In this document: in pieces, positions 16,583 to 30,629 of the stretch | How positions within the stretch are numbered: the first letter of the stretch is position 1 | How the letters are laid out: every line of letters starts with the position of its first letter | Assembly (NCBI GenBank): GCA_963681965.1 | Contig: OY820579.1 | Coordinates: 1,600,001-1,664,000 of the forward strand | DNA from: a bacterium | GTDB taxonomy: Bacteria > Electryoneota > JAOADG01 | Direction: 5' to 3' | Length of the DNA stretch: 64,000 nucleotides | Made by a program: the position numbers and the translations under genes | The notes under the pieces: model-generated | What the model was told of the DNA's origin: nothing | What the model saw: only the letters and a program-made list of their open reading frames with translations | Databases searched by the model: none

Positions 16583-17844
16583 GATTCGTTCCCTTGGATT
16601 GCACGTTTCATCGTCTGCATTTTCCAGTTGGTTTCTTCCCACTCATTATCAGGATTCGATTTATCGACAATTCCAACACCAGCATAAATTCTTGCCTGAT
16701 CGCCAGTAATCATTGCCGATCGAATTCCGACAGCAAATTCCGCTTCTTCATGACTAACCCATCCGACGACACCACTATAATACCCACGATCTTGTTTCTC
16801 CAGCACTGATATTTGATCAAGTGCTATCGATCGAGGATCGCCTCCGATAGCTGGTGTTGGGTGGAGCGCAGCAAGAATTTGCTCTAGTCCCGTATCGGAT
16901 CGCAAATATCCTTGAATCTGGCTGTAGAGATGTTGAACTGTGGCGAATTTCCGTATCGAAGGTTCGGGTTTCGGTGCAACATTGCTACACAACCCGCGAA
17001 ATGAACTTATCAACCAATCAACGACAACTTCGTGTTCCCAGCGGTCTTTATTCGAATGAAATAAAAGATCGGCAAATTTCCGATCTTCTTCGCCGTTGTT
17101 TCCTCGCGGTCTAGTTCCAGCGAGTGCATCGGCTGAGAGGAGATTGTTCGATACCCGACAAAGTTGTTCGGGAGATGCCCCAATAAAGCTGCCTTCTTCG
17201 GTAGGAAATTGAAATCGAAAACTGCTGGAATTCTCAGCTACCATATTCGAATAGATTTGCGAAAGATCCGAATCAGATGGAGAAGGAATCTCATCGAAAC
17301 GCGCTAACACCATTTTCCGGATTTTTCCGGCGGTGATCCATGTTTGGATAGTATTGATGCACTGACGCCAAGTGGTTTGATCCATCGGTGTTACTGCTGG
17401 AGCAGTCGTAGTCCGGGAGTGAGATATTTGAGAGATGCTTGCGATGTCGCTCAACAGCATTGCATTCGGATCATGCAGGCAAAATTGTCGTGAACCGGTT
17501 AATATCGCTTCAAATTGGTTCTGTTTGTGCAAAATAGTCCATTTCGGGAGCAGCCACCGGTTTCGATGCTTCCACGTTTCGGTTCGGAAAGGCAATGCGG
17601 CAAAACACCGCAGGTCGCTGATCGGTTCAATAGAATTTGACTGCAGAGTTCGTAAATAGGATTGCGCATCGTCCGCTGACCGAAAGCTGTTCGCTTCATC
17701 ATATCCGATCCATTCGGTATCAGAATCGCGGCCGATCCAGCGGGTGAGTTCAGCCGTTTTCGTATTCAGCAACGAATCGATTAACTTGGCATTCGGAATA
17801 AACCGAACGGTCGTGAGCGGGTGGGTTTCGGATTCGGCAAACAT
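16579..17844 (-). CDS. menF: Isochorismate synthase
   Basis: K.VLAR, FIGASPE, ALAGT, K...EH..VV, LHPTPAIGG, RGYYSG and YAGVGIV motifs. Confidence 0.92.
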   Translation of the reverse strand: MFAESETHPLTTVRFIPNAKLIDSLLNTKTAELTRWIGRDSDTEWIGYDEANSFRSADDAQSYLRTLQSNSIEPISDLRCFAALPFRTETWKHRNRWLLPKWTILHKQNQFEAILTGSRQFCLHDPNAMLLSDIASISQISHSRTTTAPAVTPMDQTTWRQCINTIQTWITAGKIRKMVLARFDEIPSPSDSDLSQIYSNMVAENSSSFRFQFPTEEGSFIGASPEQLCRVSNNLLSADALAGTRPRGNNGEEDRKFADLLFHSNKDRWEHEVVVDWLISSFRGLCSNVAPKPEPSIRKFATVQHLYSQIQGYLRSDTGLEQILAALHPTPAIGGDPRSIALDQISVLEKQDRGYYSGVVGWVSHEEAEFAVGIRSAMITGDQARIYAGVGIVDKSNPDNEWEETNWKMQTMKRAIQGNES

Positions 17845-17845
17845 T

Positions 17846-17854
17846 TGCTATAAT
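17846..17854 (+). promoter_or_regulatory. Extended -10 promoter element (TGnTATAAT), probably for menG
   Basis: TGCTATAAT ends 42 nt upstream of the GTG at 17897. Confidence 0.55.
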
Positions 17855-17896
17855 TTGGATTGGAAACGAGCCAGAAACAAACGGAAAGGTCGAAAA

Positions 17897-18601
17897 GTGG
17901 CAAAAGTCGCCGAAGGCAGGGAACAGGAAGCAGTTGGACAGATGTTCGATCGGATTTCTCGCCGCTACGACCTTGCCAACCGGTTTCTTTCGATTGGAAT
18001 TGACCAGCTCTGGCGCAGAAAAACCCTCAAGAGCCTAGGGGATTGGTCGGGAAAAATCCATTTGGATGTCGCTTCCGGTACAGGAGATCTTGTACTGATG
18101 AGTGGTCGGTTGAAACATCCCCCCGCGCATCGGATAGCTTTAGATTACTCGCGGAATATGATGCTTTATGGTCAAACCCGCTATCCCGGCGAGCCGATCG
18201 AGTGGGTCCAAGCTTCTGCCGATGCACTTCCCTTACAGGATCGATCCGTCGATATCGTCACAATTGCATTTGGCATCCGGAATGTCGCCAAATATCCCGA
18301 AGCGCTACGTGAATTTCACCGGGTACTCCGTCCAGACGGAAAAGTCGCAGTGCTCGAATTCAGTATGCCGCAAAATCCGATTTGGCATGCGATTTACAGC
18401 TGGTATTTCCGAAATATTCTCCCTCGGATAGGGGGAATGCTCAGCGGTAATTTCGACGCCTATCGTTATCTGCCCGCATCGGTATCGCGGTTCCCTTACG
18501 GCGAAAGCTTTGCAAACTTGCTTACGGAAGCTGGTTTTGGCAAGGTGACTTTTGAACCGCTGACGGGTGGTATCGCTACACTCTATTTGGCTGAAAAGTA
18601 A
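17897..18601 (+). CDS. menG: Demethylmenaquinone methyltransferase (UbiE/MenG)
   Basis: MFDRIS.RYDL.N..LS.G.D..WR, LDVASGTGD, IAFGIRNV and AYRYLP.S motifs. Start set at GTG 17897 to avoid overlap with menF. Confidence 0.93.
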   Translation: MAKVAEGREQEAVGQMFDRISRRYDLANRFLSIGIDQLWRRKTLKSLGDWSGKIHLDVASGTGDLVLMSGRLKHPPAHRIALDYSRNMMLYGQTRYPGEPIEWVQASADALPLQDRSVDIVTIAFGIRNVAKYPEALREFHRVLRPDGKVAVLEFSMPQNPIWHAIYSWYFRNILPRIGGMLSGNFDAYRYLPASVSRFPYGESFANLLTEAGFGKVTFEPLTGGIATLYLAEK

Positions 18602-27283: not shown

Positions 27284-27618
27284 GCCGATACGGAGATCGG
27301 CAGTACTGCCCAACTCCGATTGGGCATCTTGTAATCTATTTCCATCTTTACCTATTGAAAAGAGAAAAGGATTAAAATACACAAGAGCCGATGCGGAGAT
27401 CGGCAGTACTGCCCAACTCCGATTAGGCATCTTGTAATCTTTTTCCATCTTTACCGATTGAAAAGAGAAAAGGATTAAAATACACAAGAGCCGATTCGGA
27501 GATCGGCAGTACTACCCAACTCAGATTGGGCATCTTGTAATCTTTTTCCATCTTTACCGATTGAAAAGAGAAAGGGATTAAAATACAAAAGAGCCGATTC
27601 GGAGATCGGCAGTACTAC
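27284..27618. repeat. Tandem array of 103-bp units (~3.3 copies) built from head-to-head REP-like palindromes
   Basis: Units start at 27284, 27387, 27490 and 27593. Each reads GCCGATNCGGAGATCGGC-AGTACT-GCCCAACTCCGATTGGGC plus a near-identical linker. Confidence 0.95.
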
Positions 27619-27723: not shown

Positions 27724-28455
27724 TTATTTCGATAGCACGATGTTGACGATTTCGGCGGAAATCTTTTTCGACCACTCGGCGGAGACGTGCATCGGTTTGA
27801 AACCGAATTTGCGCGTAGCGCCCGGCTTCAGCATCAGCGCCGGGTCGGGCTGTCCGACGACGCTGGTGGCGGCGACCGGAGAATAGGTGTCGGATGCAAT
27901 CGGATGTCCGGCGGCATTGAGGAAATTGATTTTGATTTCGACTTTCGCGAGCGCCTGTTTGCCGGTATTGCGAATTTCACCATAGACGCTCGGTTCGTCG
28001 TATCTCGATTGCTGTGCGCGGAGATTCAGAATCTTGATTTTGGGGACATAGGCTTTTTCGTCGGGTGTCATCTCGAGGCGCACGGAATCGACCTTTGCCG
28101 TGACGCCGTTCATGTTCATGGTCGAGAGATTTTTGATCATCGTGTTGGCTTTGGCGACCATCTTCTGGTCGATGTTGTACATGTAGTAACACGCGGCGAT
28201 GAGGCTCGGGACGAGGATCACGAAGCTGATTTTTTTGATCCGGACGATCGCCTCGATGAGTGCGGAGACAAGTGTCAGGATACCGATGGTGGCAGTGATT
28301 GCCATCAGGTAGATGAAGAATTTCGCGATGCCGGAGATCTCGCCGAAGTTCTGCGTAAAGGTCGAGCCGAAGCCGGACAGCAGGAACAGGATTAACTCGC
28401 CAGCGGTGGCGAGGATACAAATGATAAAAATCGTGACGCCGATGGATAGTTTCAT
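27724..28455 (-). CDS. Membrane protein with C-terminal FxLYD-type Ig-like domain
   Basis: Three N-terminal hydrophobic segments, then VYGEIRNTGKQ...VEIKINFLNAAG..I and LKPG..RKF. Confidence 0.65.
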   Translation of the reverse strand: MKLSIGVTIFIICILATAGELILFLLSGFGSTFTQNFGEISGIAKFFIYLMAITATIGILTLVSALIEAIVRIKKISFVILVPSLIAACYYMYNIDQKMVAKANTMIKNLSTMNMNGVTAKVDSVRLEMTPDEKAYVPKIKILNLRAQQSRYDEPSVYGEIRNTGKQALAKVEIKINFLNAAGHPIASDTYSPVAATSVVGQPDPALMLKPGATRKFGFKPMHVSAEWSKKISAEIVNIVLSK

Positions 28456-28568
28456 GGTGATCTCACGATGGTTGAGAAACGATAGGAAAGATATAAAATT
28501 GTTTAGAATTTTCTATGGAGGATCTAGAAAATAGCAAACAAAAAATAAGATCATTGAATTTTTGAAAA

Positions 28569-29288
28569 TTAGATTTCAATTTTACATTCAATTCCTAAAC
28601 TTGCAATACCTAAACCATTTAAAGCCCAAATACCCATCTGTTTTGCATAGTCACTTGCAGAAGGCTCAAAACTGGTTGTAATCCAGTATGCAAAAACAAC
28701 TGGCTTTAAAATGCTATCTTTGTAGAGAGGGTCTGATGGATTATTAATCCTGAAAATTGAACCGCCGACGAAAGTTCTTAATTCATTTAAACATACTTTA
28801 TTATCACTTCTTTTATTTTTTGCTTGACCGATTACAGAAATACTACACCAATCAGGCATAAATCTTGAAAGTTTAAATTTCTTTGCAGAGAAATCAACTC
28901 CTCCATCATTTTTGCCACCCACTGTAACAGCTTCGCCACCTAATTCCTGTAATATTTTTGTACAGAAAATTTCAAACTCTGTTGATGAAAGTTGATTAAT
29001 TTTGTTTAAATATTTACTTTCATTAGTATTATGTTTTGTGTAATATCCATCCTCATCTATGGAAAAGTCAGGATTTATTCCACTTTCCATACATTCGTCT
29101 CTCATTTCTTGTAATCGATTAATTATTTTTGGTAAAATTTTCTCAATATGTTCTAAACGCTCTTCGATTGAGCAATTGCAGGTTCTGGAAGATAGTTCAG
29201 CTTCAATGACAGAGGAGATTTTGTGAACACCGACATGCTCGATGTTACGAACCCACAGGGCAAATGTGTTTTCATTAGGAAGTGGCAT
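28569..29288 (-). CDS. Mrr-like (Mrr_cat) PD-(D/E)xK restriction endonuclease
   Basis: LSSTEFE.FC..IL..LG, DGGVD, QAK, V...ELR.FVG, T.F..SA..YA and LNG motifs; visibly AT-rich. Confidence 0.8.
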   Translation of the reverse strand: MPLPNENTFALWVRNIEHVGVHKISSVIEAELSSRTCNCSIEERLEHIEKILPKIINRLQEMRDECMESGINPDFSIDEDGYYTKHNTNESKYLNKINQLSSTEFEIFCTKILQELGGEAVTVGGKNDGGVDFSAKKFKLSRFMPDWCSISVIGQAKNKRSDNKVCLNELRTFVGGSIFRINNPSDPLYKDSILKPVVFAYWITTSFEPSASDYAKQMGIWALNGLGIASLGIECKIEI

Positions 29289-29289
29289 T

Positions 29290-30393
29290 TTAATAATGAA
29301 GTTTGATGTTTGATTCTTCTATGGCAAGAATTCTTGATTTTAATTTTTCTAATACATCTTTCTGCTCTTCATTTAAATCCTTTACTATATCTACACTTAA
29401 TGTTGACAATATTTTCTCAGTACGAATTACTTCCATTAACCAGTCAGTTTTATGGAAAAGCTCTAGCATTGTTAAAGCGTTAGAAAGTGAACCATCTTTA
29501 CTTCTAAATTTGCTTAAGGCAGTTGGTTCACCAATTATTTTTGATAGTTCGCGGATGCTATGTGCAGTTGGTAATTTTTTCTCTTCTGAAAGTTGTCCAT
29601 TATCTTGTATCTCACCTAGAATCCAAGTAAAAAACTCATGTAATTTGTCTTTCTGTTTAAATTCTCGGGTTTCATCATCCCATTCAAGCCAATTTTTTAC
29701 TGAAGGTTGTTTAAAAACTTCTTCAAAATAACTGTAATGACTCGGTTCAACGAATTCTCCAAATTCTTCATCCTGTTTCATTTGTTCTAGGGCGTTGAAT
29801 GATCGCCATAAAAGATTCGCCGCCCGAGTTGATAACCCTAGACTTTGGGCAGCGATCTGTGGACTTTCTCCACGCTTTCTAAGTTCTGCAATAGTTCTAG
29901 CTTTTTGATAAGCACCCCATTCTCTTATACCTGAAACATGTCGTAATCCAGGAAGAATCCACCTAGAGTTCTCAGGTGCATCGTCTACTAATAGAAGTGC
30001 TTCAAAATTTGTATAATTACGGATTTGTTCATCACTAAGATCAGATCGACCTGTTTCATGCAATTCCATTAGCCATTTCAAAGCAGTAATTCTTCTATTT
30101 CCCTCAACAACTACATATTTATCTGTTGGATTTTTTCCCGCCCATTTTCTTACTACTAACCTATCCATTGGAAGAAACCCGAGATTATATATTGTATCTC
30201 GTAATTCTGCCACTTCAAACCGTTTGTCTTTCATTCGCTCAAATGTACTTGATTGAACTTTATCCTCTTCAAATCGACGCTCAGGTATTAAATCAAATTC
30301 TTGTCCTAATTCAGCGAATCGGGGATTATTAGGATCTAATAGTAATTTTTCTAAAGATAAATTGATTGGTTTTAAAAAACTCGTTAATAGCAT
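29290..30393 (-). CDS. ParB/Srx N-terminal domain protein with a following HTH-like region
   Basis: LLLDPNNPRF, YVVVEGNRRITALK (GxxRR) and RHVSGIREW..YQKA motifs; HTH-like SPQIAAQSLGLSTRAA; AGGAG RBS; AT-rich. Confidence 0.75.
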   Translation of the reverse strand: MLLTSFLKPINLSLEKLLLDPNNPRFAELGQEFDLIPERRFEEDKVQSSTFERMKDKRFEVAELRDTIYNLGFLPMDRLVVRKWAGKNPTDKYVVVEGNRRITALKWLMELHETGRSDLSDEQIRNYTNFEALLLVDDAPENSRWILPGLRHVSGIREWGAYQKARTIAELRKRGESPQIAAQSLGLSTRAANLLWRSFNALEQMKQDEEFGEFVEPSHYSYFEEVFKQPSVKNWLEWDDETREFKQKDKLHEFFTWILGEIQDNGQLSEEKKLPTAHSIRELSKIIGEPTALSKFRSKDGSLSNALTMLELFHKTDWLMEVIRTEKILSTLSVDIVKDLNEEQKDVLEKLKSRILAIEESNIKLHY

Positions 30394-30576
30394 AACACAT
30401 CTCCTTAATAAATATTTACTAATATTGATTTAGTGTGAACTAATGAAAATATATACTTTATTGTTGTCAATCCAACTTAAAGTATAACTGGTTAAAAAAA
30501 TACTTTGTGAATATAGAAGTTTAATGTTGATTTAATATATTGCGATTAACATTCAAAGTCAACTTTTATTCAGATT

Positions 30577-30603
30577 ACAGGCGCCCCTTTCGGAGCGCCT
30601 GTG
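30577..30603 (-). terminator. Probable degP terminator hairpin
   Basis: ACAGGCGC...GCGCCTGT inverted repeat just downstream of the degP stop; weak T-tail. Confidence 0.5.
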
Positions 30604-30629
30604 GTTTGTGTACTGCCTGTCGGAAAAGA

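Follow-up and report, generated by a model that had tools for sequence, protein, structure and literature searches.

A conserved gene pair encoding a ParB-like protein and an Mrr-type nuclease, a candidate defence module lacking an adjacent methyltransferase

The window analysed here, a stretch of 64,000 nucleotides (nt) from contig OY820579.1 of a bacterium of the Electryoneota, contains a cassette of two minus-strand genes, the first of which (gene 1) encodes a ParB-like protein and the second (gene 2) an Mrr-type nuclease. The two genes are one fixed unit that recurs in other phyla. We read the pair as a defence-type module composed of a ParB-like hub and a nuclease effector, with a probability of roughly 60%, and sequence comparisons indicate that the cassette belongs to a large unnamed family, and there probably to the methyltransferase-less branch. 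The genes, their domains and their motifs are located as follows (window coordinates; ORF, open reading frame; aa, amino acids; HTH, helix-turn-helix).

30393..29290, minus strand: gene 1, ParB-like protein (ORF with ATG start, 367 aa)
29914..30393, minus strand: gene 1 residues 1-160, predicted ParB/Srx-fold nucleotide-binding domain (VIA, motifs)
30105..30091, minus strand: gene 1 residues 97-101, EGNRR motif (sequence)
29674..29913, minus strand: gene 1 residues 161-240, predicted ParB-type HTH DNA-binding domain (model helices, VIA)
29293..29673, minus strand: gene 1 residues 241-367, family-specific helical C-terminal domain (model, conservation)
Gene 1 residues 20-26, DPNNPRF, and residues 150-165, LRHVSG..W.YQKA, minus strand (sequence)
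29288..28569, minus strand: gene 2, Mrr-type nuclease (ORF with ATG start, 239 aa)
29013..29288, minus strand: gene 2 residues 1-92, small alpha/beta N-terminal domain (weak VIA matches)
28572..29012, minus strand: gene 2 residues 93-239, Mrr/MspJI/FokI-type catalytic domain (Pfam, VIA, Foldseek)
Catalytic residues of gene 2, minus strand: E106; D128 and D132 (nt 28907..28893); Q155-A-K157 (nt 28826..28818) (sequence)
Gene 2 residues 128-132, DGGVD, and residues 155-157, QAK, minus strand (sequence)

Both ORFs are as an earlier sequence-only reading of the window had described them, co-oriented on the minus strand, with the TAA of gene 1 followed after a single base by the ATG of gene 2. Because a word-based homology search with gene 2 returned only gene 2 itself, its family was looked for beside relatives of gene 1. 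Via gene 1, 91 loci were sampled, 11 from species-representative genomes (Acidobacteriota, Chloroflexia, Syntrophaceae, Candidatus Magnetobacterium, Bacillota and Ktedonobacteraceae) and the remainder being the best 80 of at least 462 metagenome relatives. The loci were searched with hidden Markov models (HMMs) of both proteins over stop-to-stop frames, and removal of 12 near-duplicates left 79. A gene 2 homologue was present downstream of gene 1 and on the same strand in 79 of the 91 loci, corresponding to 69 of the 79 non-redundant loci, which come from other phyla. The loci without it (12/91; 10/79 non-redundant) all break off at a contig end, with no more than 169 nt left past gene 1, so that the adjacency of homologue pairs that had been suggested as a check was borne out. 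The gap between the two genes has a median of 12 nt and is at most 60 nt in 68 of 69 cases. On two near-duplicate contigs (L067:2824-3105 and L069:7089-7370) a 284-nt non-coding stretch lies between the genes, compared to at most 47 nt elsewhere. No third conserved gene accompanies the pair; when 384 neighbour ORFs were clustered, the largest group was present in 5 of 79 loci, without a constant distance or side.

In one case among the 79 loci, L081:5980-7884 on a metagenome contig, the ParB-like protein and the Mrr-type nuclease are encoded in one open frame of about 630 aa, in which the C-terminus of gene 1 is joined to the N-terminus of the nuclease. A search of 1.84 billion proteins with a profile of the gene 2 family gave 125 representatives at E ≤ 1e-30, and since the best 150 matches (E up to 1.1e-27) all have lengths of 91-316 aa, fused forms are rare. 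Occurrence of gene 2 without gene 1 was checked in six genomes, and indirectly via these protein lengths; in five sampled genomes and in that of the window, the gene 2 family is single-copy and located beside gene 1. Conservation was evaluated in 56 non-redundant full-length pairs. The EGNRR motif and the gene 2 residues D128, D132, Q155 and K157 are each kept in 56/56 pairs and DPNNPRF in 55/56. The pairwise identities of the two proteins correlate with r = 0.82 (1540 pairs of the 56 sequences), as expected for genes that are inherited together, with gene 2 diverging faster than gene 1 (mean identity 0.37 vs 0.56). Lowest conservation was found in the C-terminal domain of gene 1 and the N-terminal domain of gene 2. 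A contact between these two domains would fit, because they are the ones joined in the L081 fusion and are both the most variable. Complex prediction from the alignments of both genes gave a score of 0.01 with the mark at 0.32, which speaks neither for nor against binding.

According to its structure model, gene 1 has the architecture of a canonical ParB-type switch, with a ParB/Srx N-terminal domain and a ParB-type HTH, to which a helical C-terminal domain is added. Since no Pfam match above cut-off was obtained, this assignment rests on predicted fold and motifs. NCBIfam likewise gave no match above cut-off (TIGR00180 reached 13.9 bits, with a cut-off of 58.45), and a profile of the gene 1 family searched against the sequences of solved structures retrieved no ParB, only an HTH-like designed repeat. 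The model (pLDDT 89.2, from an alignment of 39 sequences) was placed by Foldseek closest to KorB of RK2 (E 2e-6), Noc and nucleotide-bound ParB (with CDP or CTPgS). As a second look after Foldseek, the predicted models were aligned with VIA, from which all Z scores given here are derived. Gene 1 matched KorB with Z 9.9 (193 residues, model 8-294), M. xanthus ParB with CTPgS with Z 9.6 (root-mean-square deviation 2.7, 95 residues, model 8-159) and Noc with Z 9.4 (196 residues), and the isolated DNA-binding domains of KorB, Noc and SopB with Z 5.4, 5.3 and 5.1, respectively. The DUF262 protein SspE reached only Z 4.5. The likeness to DUF262 proteins and SspE that the sequence-only reading had drawn was therefore not upheld, gene 1 being closer to ParB, KorB and Noc (Z 9.4-9.9). 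The EGNRR motif and the HTH-like segment that it had pointed out were recovered, the latter in the predicted fold at residues 161-240 with model helices at 161-173, 178-184 and 189-206. The C-terminal domain is all-helical in the model and gave no usable match in the ESM Atlas. The HTH is the most conserved part of gene 1 (mean 0.64), whereas the C-terminal domain has a mean of 0.33 compared to 0.60-0.64 elsewhere in the protein; we propose that it serves as a dimerisation or partner-docking region.

Like canonical ParB, KorB and Noc, gene 1 is predicted to have an N-terminal domain followed by an HTH, and it carries a GxxR P-motif and a motif resembling PNxPR, the N-terminal motif of ParB. 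Unlike these proteins, it has a further domain at its C-terminus and a nuclease as obligate partner, and where they have GERR, gene 1 has N in place of E. GxxR is defined as the phosphate-binding motif of ParB-fold proteins in a preprint (bioRxiv 10.64898/2026.05.05.722872), and in gene 1 it corresponds to G98-N99-R100-R101, kept in all 56 pairs. The same preprint describes ToxB, a ParB-fold ATPase with GNHR at the pocket, as binding and hydrolysing ATP. As ToxB uses ATP, the asparagine in GNRR does not speak against activity, and by this analogy the nucleotide of gene 1 may be either CTP or ATP. Neither an adjoining ParA-like ORF nor a parS-like motif or other conserved operator upstream of gene 1 was found; in the 74 upstream regions compared there was no common motif, and the top 10-mer occurred in 5 loci. 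The gene 1 family comprises 1041 relatives among 6670 candidates. Among the matches listed (119 besides the query), identity to gene 1 is 52-60% and length 365-415 aa; their labels include Flavobacterium, Ereboglobus, Leptospiraceae and Korobacteraceae. Some of these are named 'ParB N-terminal domain-containing protein', and 4 of the 119 have a precomputed PF02195 match.

Gene 2 passes the Pfam cut-off for Mrr_cat (1.6e-7, 31.9 bits, cut-off 21), and the structure of the protein was modelled with a pLDDT of 87.0. Residues ~74-239 of the model align with AF1548 (Z 14.0), MspJI (Z 12.5), FokI (Z 11.5) and AspBHI (Z 11.5), and the small subunit of the heterodimeric R.BspD6I was matched with Z 9.1; Foldseek also placed gene 2 close to MspJI (E 8.8e-7). 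The claim of an intact D...QAK active site behind an unrecognised N-terminal domain of about 90 aa was thus correct, residues 1-92 being without a Pfam match, that of Mrr_N included, and without a usable match in the ESM Atlas. VIA gave weak matches of residues 2-87 to the winged-helix proteins ScpB (Z 5.6) and SSV1 F-112 (Z 5.5), each over 66-67 residues and in the range of chance; the domain in the model is possibly winged-helix-like. It is kept along with the nuclease domain across the family. Gene 2 shares with FokI, R.BspD6I and Mrr the FokI/Mrr-type catalytic domain and, with the first two, a nuclease subunit that relies on another module for target recognition. It differs from FokI and R.BspD6I, in which a type IIS domain recognises the target, in having a ParB-fold protein in this place and no cognate methyltransferase; with Mrr it shares the Mrr_cat D...(Q/E)xK signature (D132 and Q155-A-K157 in 56/56 pairs), but Mrr_N was not detected in gene 2 by Pfam. 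Among gene 2 and nine aligned homologues, 8/10 matched the PADLOC model mREase_IV and 6/10 mREase_II, and the family matched PDC-S02 and models of methyl-directed restriction endonucleases (REases) via the catalytic domain.

The sequence-only reading had found no named system for the pair. This stands insofar as the defining features of the two nearest systems are not present, and has to be modified insofar as gene 1 matches components of both and has homologues in the P2 hotspot. The first is PDC-M38, a candidate of PADLOC-DB v2. Gene 1 matched PDC-M38A (PDLC04607) with 2.2e-49 over profile positions 10-358 of 715, and six of its relatives did so with 2.5e-41 to 7.2e-55; gene 1 corresponds over its whole length to the first ~365 positions of PDC-M38A. 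Unlike gene 1, full-length PDC-M38A (708-736 aa) adds an AbiLi/AriA-like AAA_15/AAA_21 ATPase and is followed by PDC-M38B. The full-length members P0122, P0123 and L109 cover positions 5-715 and carry AAA_15/AAA_21. A complete pair of the PDC-M38 type, consisting of a 736-aa A protein (PDC-M38A 1.5e-260) and a 296-aa PDC-M38B (8.2e-79), was seen on a viral contig (L109:6450-9547). The second system is PD-lambda-5, listed as 'ParB/HEPN, methyltransferase' and validated in E. coli (Vassallo et al. 2022, Table S1, PMC9519451). Its authors regard it as a compact prophage system combining restriction-modification (RM) and abortive infection (Abi), and it was cloned in a host without the mrr region (PMC9519451). 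Gene 1 matches 21 PD-Lambda-5_A models (best 2.1e-13) with residues 10-184 at most, and these matches end near profile position 170 of 428-503. PD-lambda-5 and the pair therefore have the ParB-like N-terminal module in common, and both are compact mobile cassettes, of defence in the former case; in PD-lambda-5, as tabulated by its authors, a HEPN effector is fused to the ParB part and a methyltransferase is the second gene. Next to the pair there is neither a PD-Lambda-5_B match nor a methyltransferase ORF, and neither gene 2 nor its nine aligned homologues matched PDC-M38B or any PD-Lambda-5 model in PADLOC. Judged by these profile matches, the pair has a module in common with PDC-M38 and PD-lambda-5 but lacks the defining features of each.

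These relatives bear on the question whether the pair acts as a toxin-antitoxin or abortive infection system, in which the ParB-like protein would restrain a nuclease toxin until infection sets it free, with death or arrest of the cell as the outcome. The tight coupling of the genes with the putative regulator in first place would suit such a system, as would the fusion of the ParB-like module to an AbiL/AriA-type ATPase in PDC-M38A or to HEPN in PD-lambda-5, described by its authors as 'compact RM+Abi' (PMC9519451). The L081 fusion, however, suits a holoenzyme better than a releasable toxin, and gene 1 with its 367 aa and its conserved nucleotide- and DNA-binding domains is large and unlike a simple antitoxin. 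We consider this explanation quite improbable.

A further comparison concerns GmrSD, SspE and BrxU, in which a DUF262 NTPase of the ParB superfamily with a DGxQR motif is combined with a DUF1524 HNH nuclease (PMC12065111); GmrS and GmrD were originally discovered as separate proteins (PMC10952713). As far as these sources describe them, they resemble the pair in having a ParB/Srx-fold nucleotide-binding sensor and a nuclease, no methyltransferase and sometimes a split organisation. The motif is DGQQR there and EGNRR in gene 1, gene 1 had no DUF262 Pfam match at E ≤ 0.1, its fold lies nearer to KorB than to SspE (see above), and the nuclease is of the His-Me/HNH type there compared to Mrr_cat PD-(D/E)xK in gene 2.

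Homologues of the cassette with a methyltransferase were found in prophages. A protein search with gene 1 retrieved distant relatives with 24-26% identity over 78% of gene 1 in records of P2-like phages (Wphi gp98, vB_EcoM-12474III, L-413C, HQ103, a P2 record and Pseudomonas Citexvirus), and the prophage ParB-like gene matched PDC-M38A with 9.2e-25. In Escherichia phage Wphi (L099), vB_EcoM-12474III (L100) and Pseudomonas phage vB_PaeM-D14A (L101), the ParB-like gene was seen together with an overlapping gene for 299-369 aa and a convergent C5 methyltransferase gene; in vB_EcoM-12474III the three-gene cassette lies between the portal gene Q and the replication gene A. The overlapping middle gene had no Pfam or PADLOC match. 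In an alignment of 39 members, this partner family keeps GDGGxD and has Q-C at the position of Q-A-K in gene 2, without the lysine there. Profile-profile comparison with hhalign nonetheless related it to the gene 2 family (94.8%, E 4.9e-8, 151 columns including the N-terminal domain), so that the N-terminal domain of gene 2 aligns with the N-terminal part of the prophage partners. Single-sequence hhalign of gene 2 with Wphi gp96 and the D14A partner had given 6-8% and was dropped as too insensitive, and a single-pattern scan of the viral contigs with the gene 2 profile yielded no relative. The P2-hotspot cassette (e.g., Wphi gp98/gp96/mth) hence resembles that of the window in its homologous ParB-like gene followed by a co-oriented overlapping homologue of gene 2. 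It differs in its C5 methyltransferase, which the window's clade lacks, in its prophage site, no phage genes having been seen beside the pair in the window, and in a partner of 296-379 aa (in the loci examined) that has no Pfam match and Q-C instead of QxK. This ParB-nuclease-C5-methyltransferase cassette is itself unnamed and uncharacterised. A C5 methyltransferase was present in 62 of the 74 viral-contig loci with a partner ORF, in 58 of them directly downstream of the pair, compared to 0 of the 79 non-redundant loci of the window's clade. In the viral loci L104, L107 and L108 the partner was a classical Mrr_cat protein in the HMM search, and no C5 methyltransferase was matched.

Given the absence of a methyltransferase, the cassette may depend on foreign modification, may obey a loading rule built into the ParB-like switch, or may be protected in trans. 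The pair might be the cutting half of an RM system whose methyltransferase is encoded elsewhere in the genome, or has been lost and left an inert remnant. Besides the downstream C5 methyltransferase of the prophage homologues, several observations would agree with this. N4/N6-type methyltransferases are located beside the pair in L023, L025 and L031 and another methyltransferase in L029, and the genome of the window encodes two C5 and several N4/N6-type methyltransferases, all far from the cassette. In 10 of 68 loci PADLOC matched methyltransferases within 2.6 kb, several of these enzymes being parts of separate adjacent RM systems. On the other hand, the methylase-less state is the rule in this clade, and the pair in the window differs from a classical RM system in having no cognate methyltransferase beside the nuclease. 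A mobile two-gene cassette could not count on a matching methyltransferase in each new host, and decay is unlikely with both genes open and every catalytic residue kept in 56/56 pairs across phyla. An RM half-system is therefore an unlikely explanation, although less so than a toxin-antitoxin function.

Dependence on foreign modification would make the pair a type IV-like restriction system, in which the ParB-like protein or the N-terminal domain of gene 2 reads a foreign base modification, as DUF262 does in GmrSD and SspE. This would explain why the pair needs no methyltransferase, and it agrees with the contrast between 0/79 and 62/74 loci, with the proximity of the catalytic domain to the modification-dependent enzymes MspJI and AspBHI, with the mREase matches of the gene 2 family and with the existence of split enzymes of a ParB-superfamily protein and a nuclease, such as GmrS/GmrD (PMC10952713). 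The likeness to MspJI and AspBHI is, however, limited to the catalytic domain, and FokI and AF1548 match equally well. No SRA, PUA or DUF262-type reader domain was found in the pair by Pfam, and gene 1 is nearer to ParB and KorB than to SspE. Furthermore, the methyltransferase-bearing sister clade implies that ancestrally the nuclease was inhibited by methylation and not dependent on it. Modification dependence is thus a less probable alternative to our preferred reading, though the most plausible of those considered here.

The distribution of the cassette is sporadic. Among 31 genomes of the phylum it was found in one, that of the window; it was absent from one genome of the same genus and from all three other genomes of the same family that were examined. 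In the phylum of locus L005, the gene 2 family was present in 1 of 301 genomes. Several of the loci likewise show a pair of lower G+C content than its flanks, for example 0.38-0.41 compared to 0.57-0.69 in L006. The sporadic occurrence together with the low G+C content relative to the flanks indicates a horizontally moving accessory module.

Its neighbours were compared with PADLOC at 1e-8, using the nearest 150 of 230 eligible ORFs (≥ 110 aa, within 2.6 kb) from 68 loci. Matches were obtained for 34 of the 150 proteins, located in 27 of the 68 loci. They include type I, II, IIG and III restriction and modification enzymes, methyl-directed REases, DrmD and PbeC/DndD/DndE/DndA, furthermore SAVED-TIR, PD-T4-6, PD-Lambda-3_A and several PDC candidates. 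As control served the other 40 ORFs of the window, of which three matched, all through generic domains (mad2-like, degP protease domain, subtilase). The 'mad2' match (3.8e-10) belongs to a 285-aa ORF at 17744-18601, about 10 kb from the cassette, and is weak and probably due to a generic methyltransferase-like domain. Fisher's test against this rough, unmatched control gave p = 0.021, and with a stricter split chosen after the data had been seen (27/150 vs 0/40) p was 0.001. For the enrichment in defence islands that the sequence-only reading had proposed as a check, the picture is mixed, 27 of the 68 loci having such neighbours and 41 having none. In a Ktedonobacteraceae genome (L011:284-10759), a distant copy of the pair has a PbeC/DndD-like gene on one side and convergent genes for DndA and DndE on the other. 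On the pTi plasmid NZ_CP072169.1 of Agrobacterium larrymoorei (L103), a ParB-like gene with 23% identity follows a DEAD/DEAH helicase gene and faces dndBCDE. There are thus hints that this ParB-like superfamily is linked to DNA phosphorothioation loci.

The resemblance of gene 1 to KorB, Noc and ParB, proteins with roles in partition, nucleoid occlusion and repression, and the lack of defence neighbours in this window could also point to a role outside defence, in segregation, nucleoid organisation, repair or gene regulation, either as a housekeeping function or on behalf of a mobile element. Such a role is very improbable in our view. It would leave the missing ParA and the missing conserved upstream site without explanation, it does not agree with a cassette present in 1 of 31 genomes of the phylum and in none of three others of the same family, no plasmid or phage replication genes travel with the pair, and in other loci its neighbours are often defence genes.

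The reading as a defence-type module of hub and effector is therefore supported by the adjacency of the genes, the one fusion, the sporadic distribution and the defence-gene neighbours. The original suggestion of a candidate defence module was upheld on these points; it has to be qualified in that the pair has relatives and that the ParB subfamily is a different one. Several observations weigh against this reading. Without a methyltransferase in cis, self-protection lacks an explanation. The highly conserved HTH (0.64) speaks against a diversifying sequence specificity and contrasts with classical restriction enzymes, whose specificity domains diversify. The control for the neighbours is small and unmatched and was taken from one genome, the stricter split is post hoc, and 41 of the 68 loci have no PADLOC-matching neighbour at all. 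In the window, the cassette is located between degP and a housekeeping-looking gene, outside any defence island. Finally, gene 1 has neither a Pfam or NCBIfam match above cut-off nor an HMM match to solved ParB sequences.

Catalytic domains of the FokI/MspJI type are known to require dimers or higher assemblies for cutting both strands, and another module for finding the DNA. A ParB-like dimer with two nuclease subunits would provide both dimerisation and DNA finding. In the mechanism that we propose, the pair would act as a self-contained two-gene restriction-like module against phages or other incoming DNA. Gene 1 would serve as DNA sensor and hub, binding DNA via its HTH and switching its state on nucleotide at the GNRR pocket, and gene 2 would be the effector, a FokI/MspJI-like PD-(D/E)xK nuclease with only a small N-terminal domain for DNA recognition. 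The hub dimer might engage the target DNA and hold or activate two nuclease subunits via the variable C-terminal domain of gene 1 and the N-terminal domains of gene 2, so that the two catalytic domains would be brought together for a double-strand cut. We infer the nucleoside triphosphate-gated licensing of the nuclease, the protein-protein binding, the dimer-driven cleavage and the defence phenotype. A more specific version would be that a canonical nucleotide-gated clamp of the ParB type has been recruited as the subunit that finds the target for a methyltransferase-independent restriction enzyme. Such a clamp would entrap incoming DNA and perhaps slide along it, the FokI-like dimer would cut only when the clamp is closed, and self DNA would be spared by a loading rule instead of an epigenetic mark. 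This version is tentative, and we hold it to be doubtful in its full form.

The regions around the cassette are as follows.

30394..30629, minus strand: AT-rich intergenic region upstream of the cassette, with promoter-like site and ribosome-binding site (G+C 0.30)
30562..30534, minus strand: promoter-like site TTGACT-17-TATATT (consensus scan, weak)
28456..28568, minus strand: AT-rich spacer downstream of the cassette, reaching to the start of the FxLYD-type gene, where the low-G+C block ends

The AT-richness of the cassette relative to its flanks and of its upstream region, noted from the sequence before, is evident from 400-nt windows: G+C is 0.30-0.39 across ~28400-30600 and 0.50-0.58 in the flanks overall, with 0.52-0.54 in the FxLYD-type gene and 0.55-0.58 in degP. 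An AAGGAG ribosome-binding site is located 7 nt before the ATG of gene 1. The consensus scan found 12 promoter-like sites compared to 8.3 ± 2.8 in shuffled sequences, which is a weak signal. A terminator-like hairpin of degP is present at the far end of the upstream region (30394..30629), and the terminator scan reported no terminator-like site in the downstream spacer (28456..28568). A Pfam scan covered the pair and the flanking genes, the other 40 ORFs of the window having been scanned with PADLOC. The upstream flank, degP, encodes a Trypsin_2 plus PDZ protease, and the downstream FxLYD-type gene gave only weak matches to DUF2393 and DUF3426. As had been stated, none of the ORFs adjoining the pair in the window encodes a methyltransferase, ParA, integrase or transposase, and no phage genes were seen there.

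There was no tRNA within 15 kb of the cassette, no convincing direct repeat flanking it and no Rfam match in the window between 26000 and 32500. Boundaries of an insertion were not definable by comparison with an empty site, as the relatives have ~70-75% DNA identity and carry degP and rluD on separate contigs. Between the rluD-like and the FxLYD-type genes, at 27284-27616, a 103-nt unit is present in 3.2 tandem copies (95% matches). This unit or its palindromic core of ~25-45 nt has 67 matches across the genome of the window, and is therefore a dispersed repeat of the repetitive extragenic palindromic (REP) or miniature inverted-repeat transposable element (MITE) type.

In the full texts of the literature searched, which did not extend to bioRxiv supplements, we found no paper on a ParB-type protein and an Mrr-type nuclease as a system and no mention of 'PDC-M38'. 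The nearest printed ideas in the sources cited are the DUF262-based GmrSD, SspE and Menshen (PMC12065111, PMC10952713, PMC12839542) and the ParA-centred 'effector-ParAB' systems, which according to a 2026 preprint (bioRxiv 10.64898/2026.10.19.760177) require ParA and use an inactive ParB. As PD-lambda-5 and the PADLOC candidate share the hub module and split enzymes of a ParB-superfamily protein and a nuclease are known, the pair is not categorically new.

What it might add concerns the switch itself. Established settings for CTP switches of the ParB type are the partition of chromosomes and plasmids, nucleoid occlusion and the silencing of plasmid genes. If the reading is true, a family that ties such a switch to a restriction-type nuclease would extend this mechanism to immunity, and the family is widespread and large, the scans having given over 1000 protein clusters and, from metagenomes, at least 462 loci. 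With about 1.8 kb, the two genes would offer a compact model for the licensing of a nuclease in the absence of a methyltransferase. At least four effector set-ups occur with this ParB-like module, namely a separate Mrr-type nuclease, a divergent nuclease plus C5 methyltransferase, a fused HEPN and a fused AbiL-type ATPase, which suggests a sensor hub shared across these systems. Understanding one member that carries this hub would therefore inform several systems.

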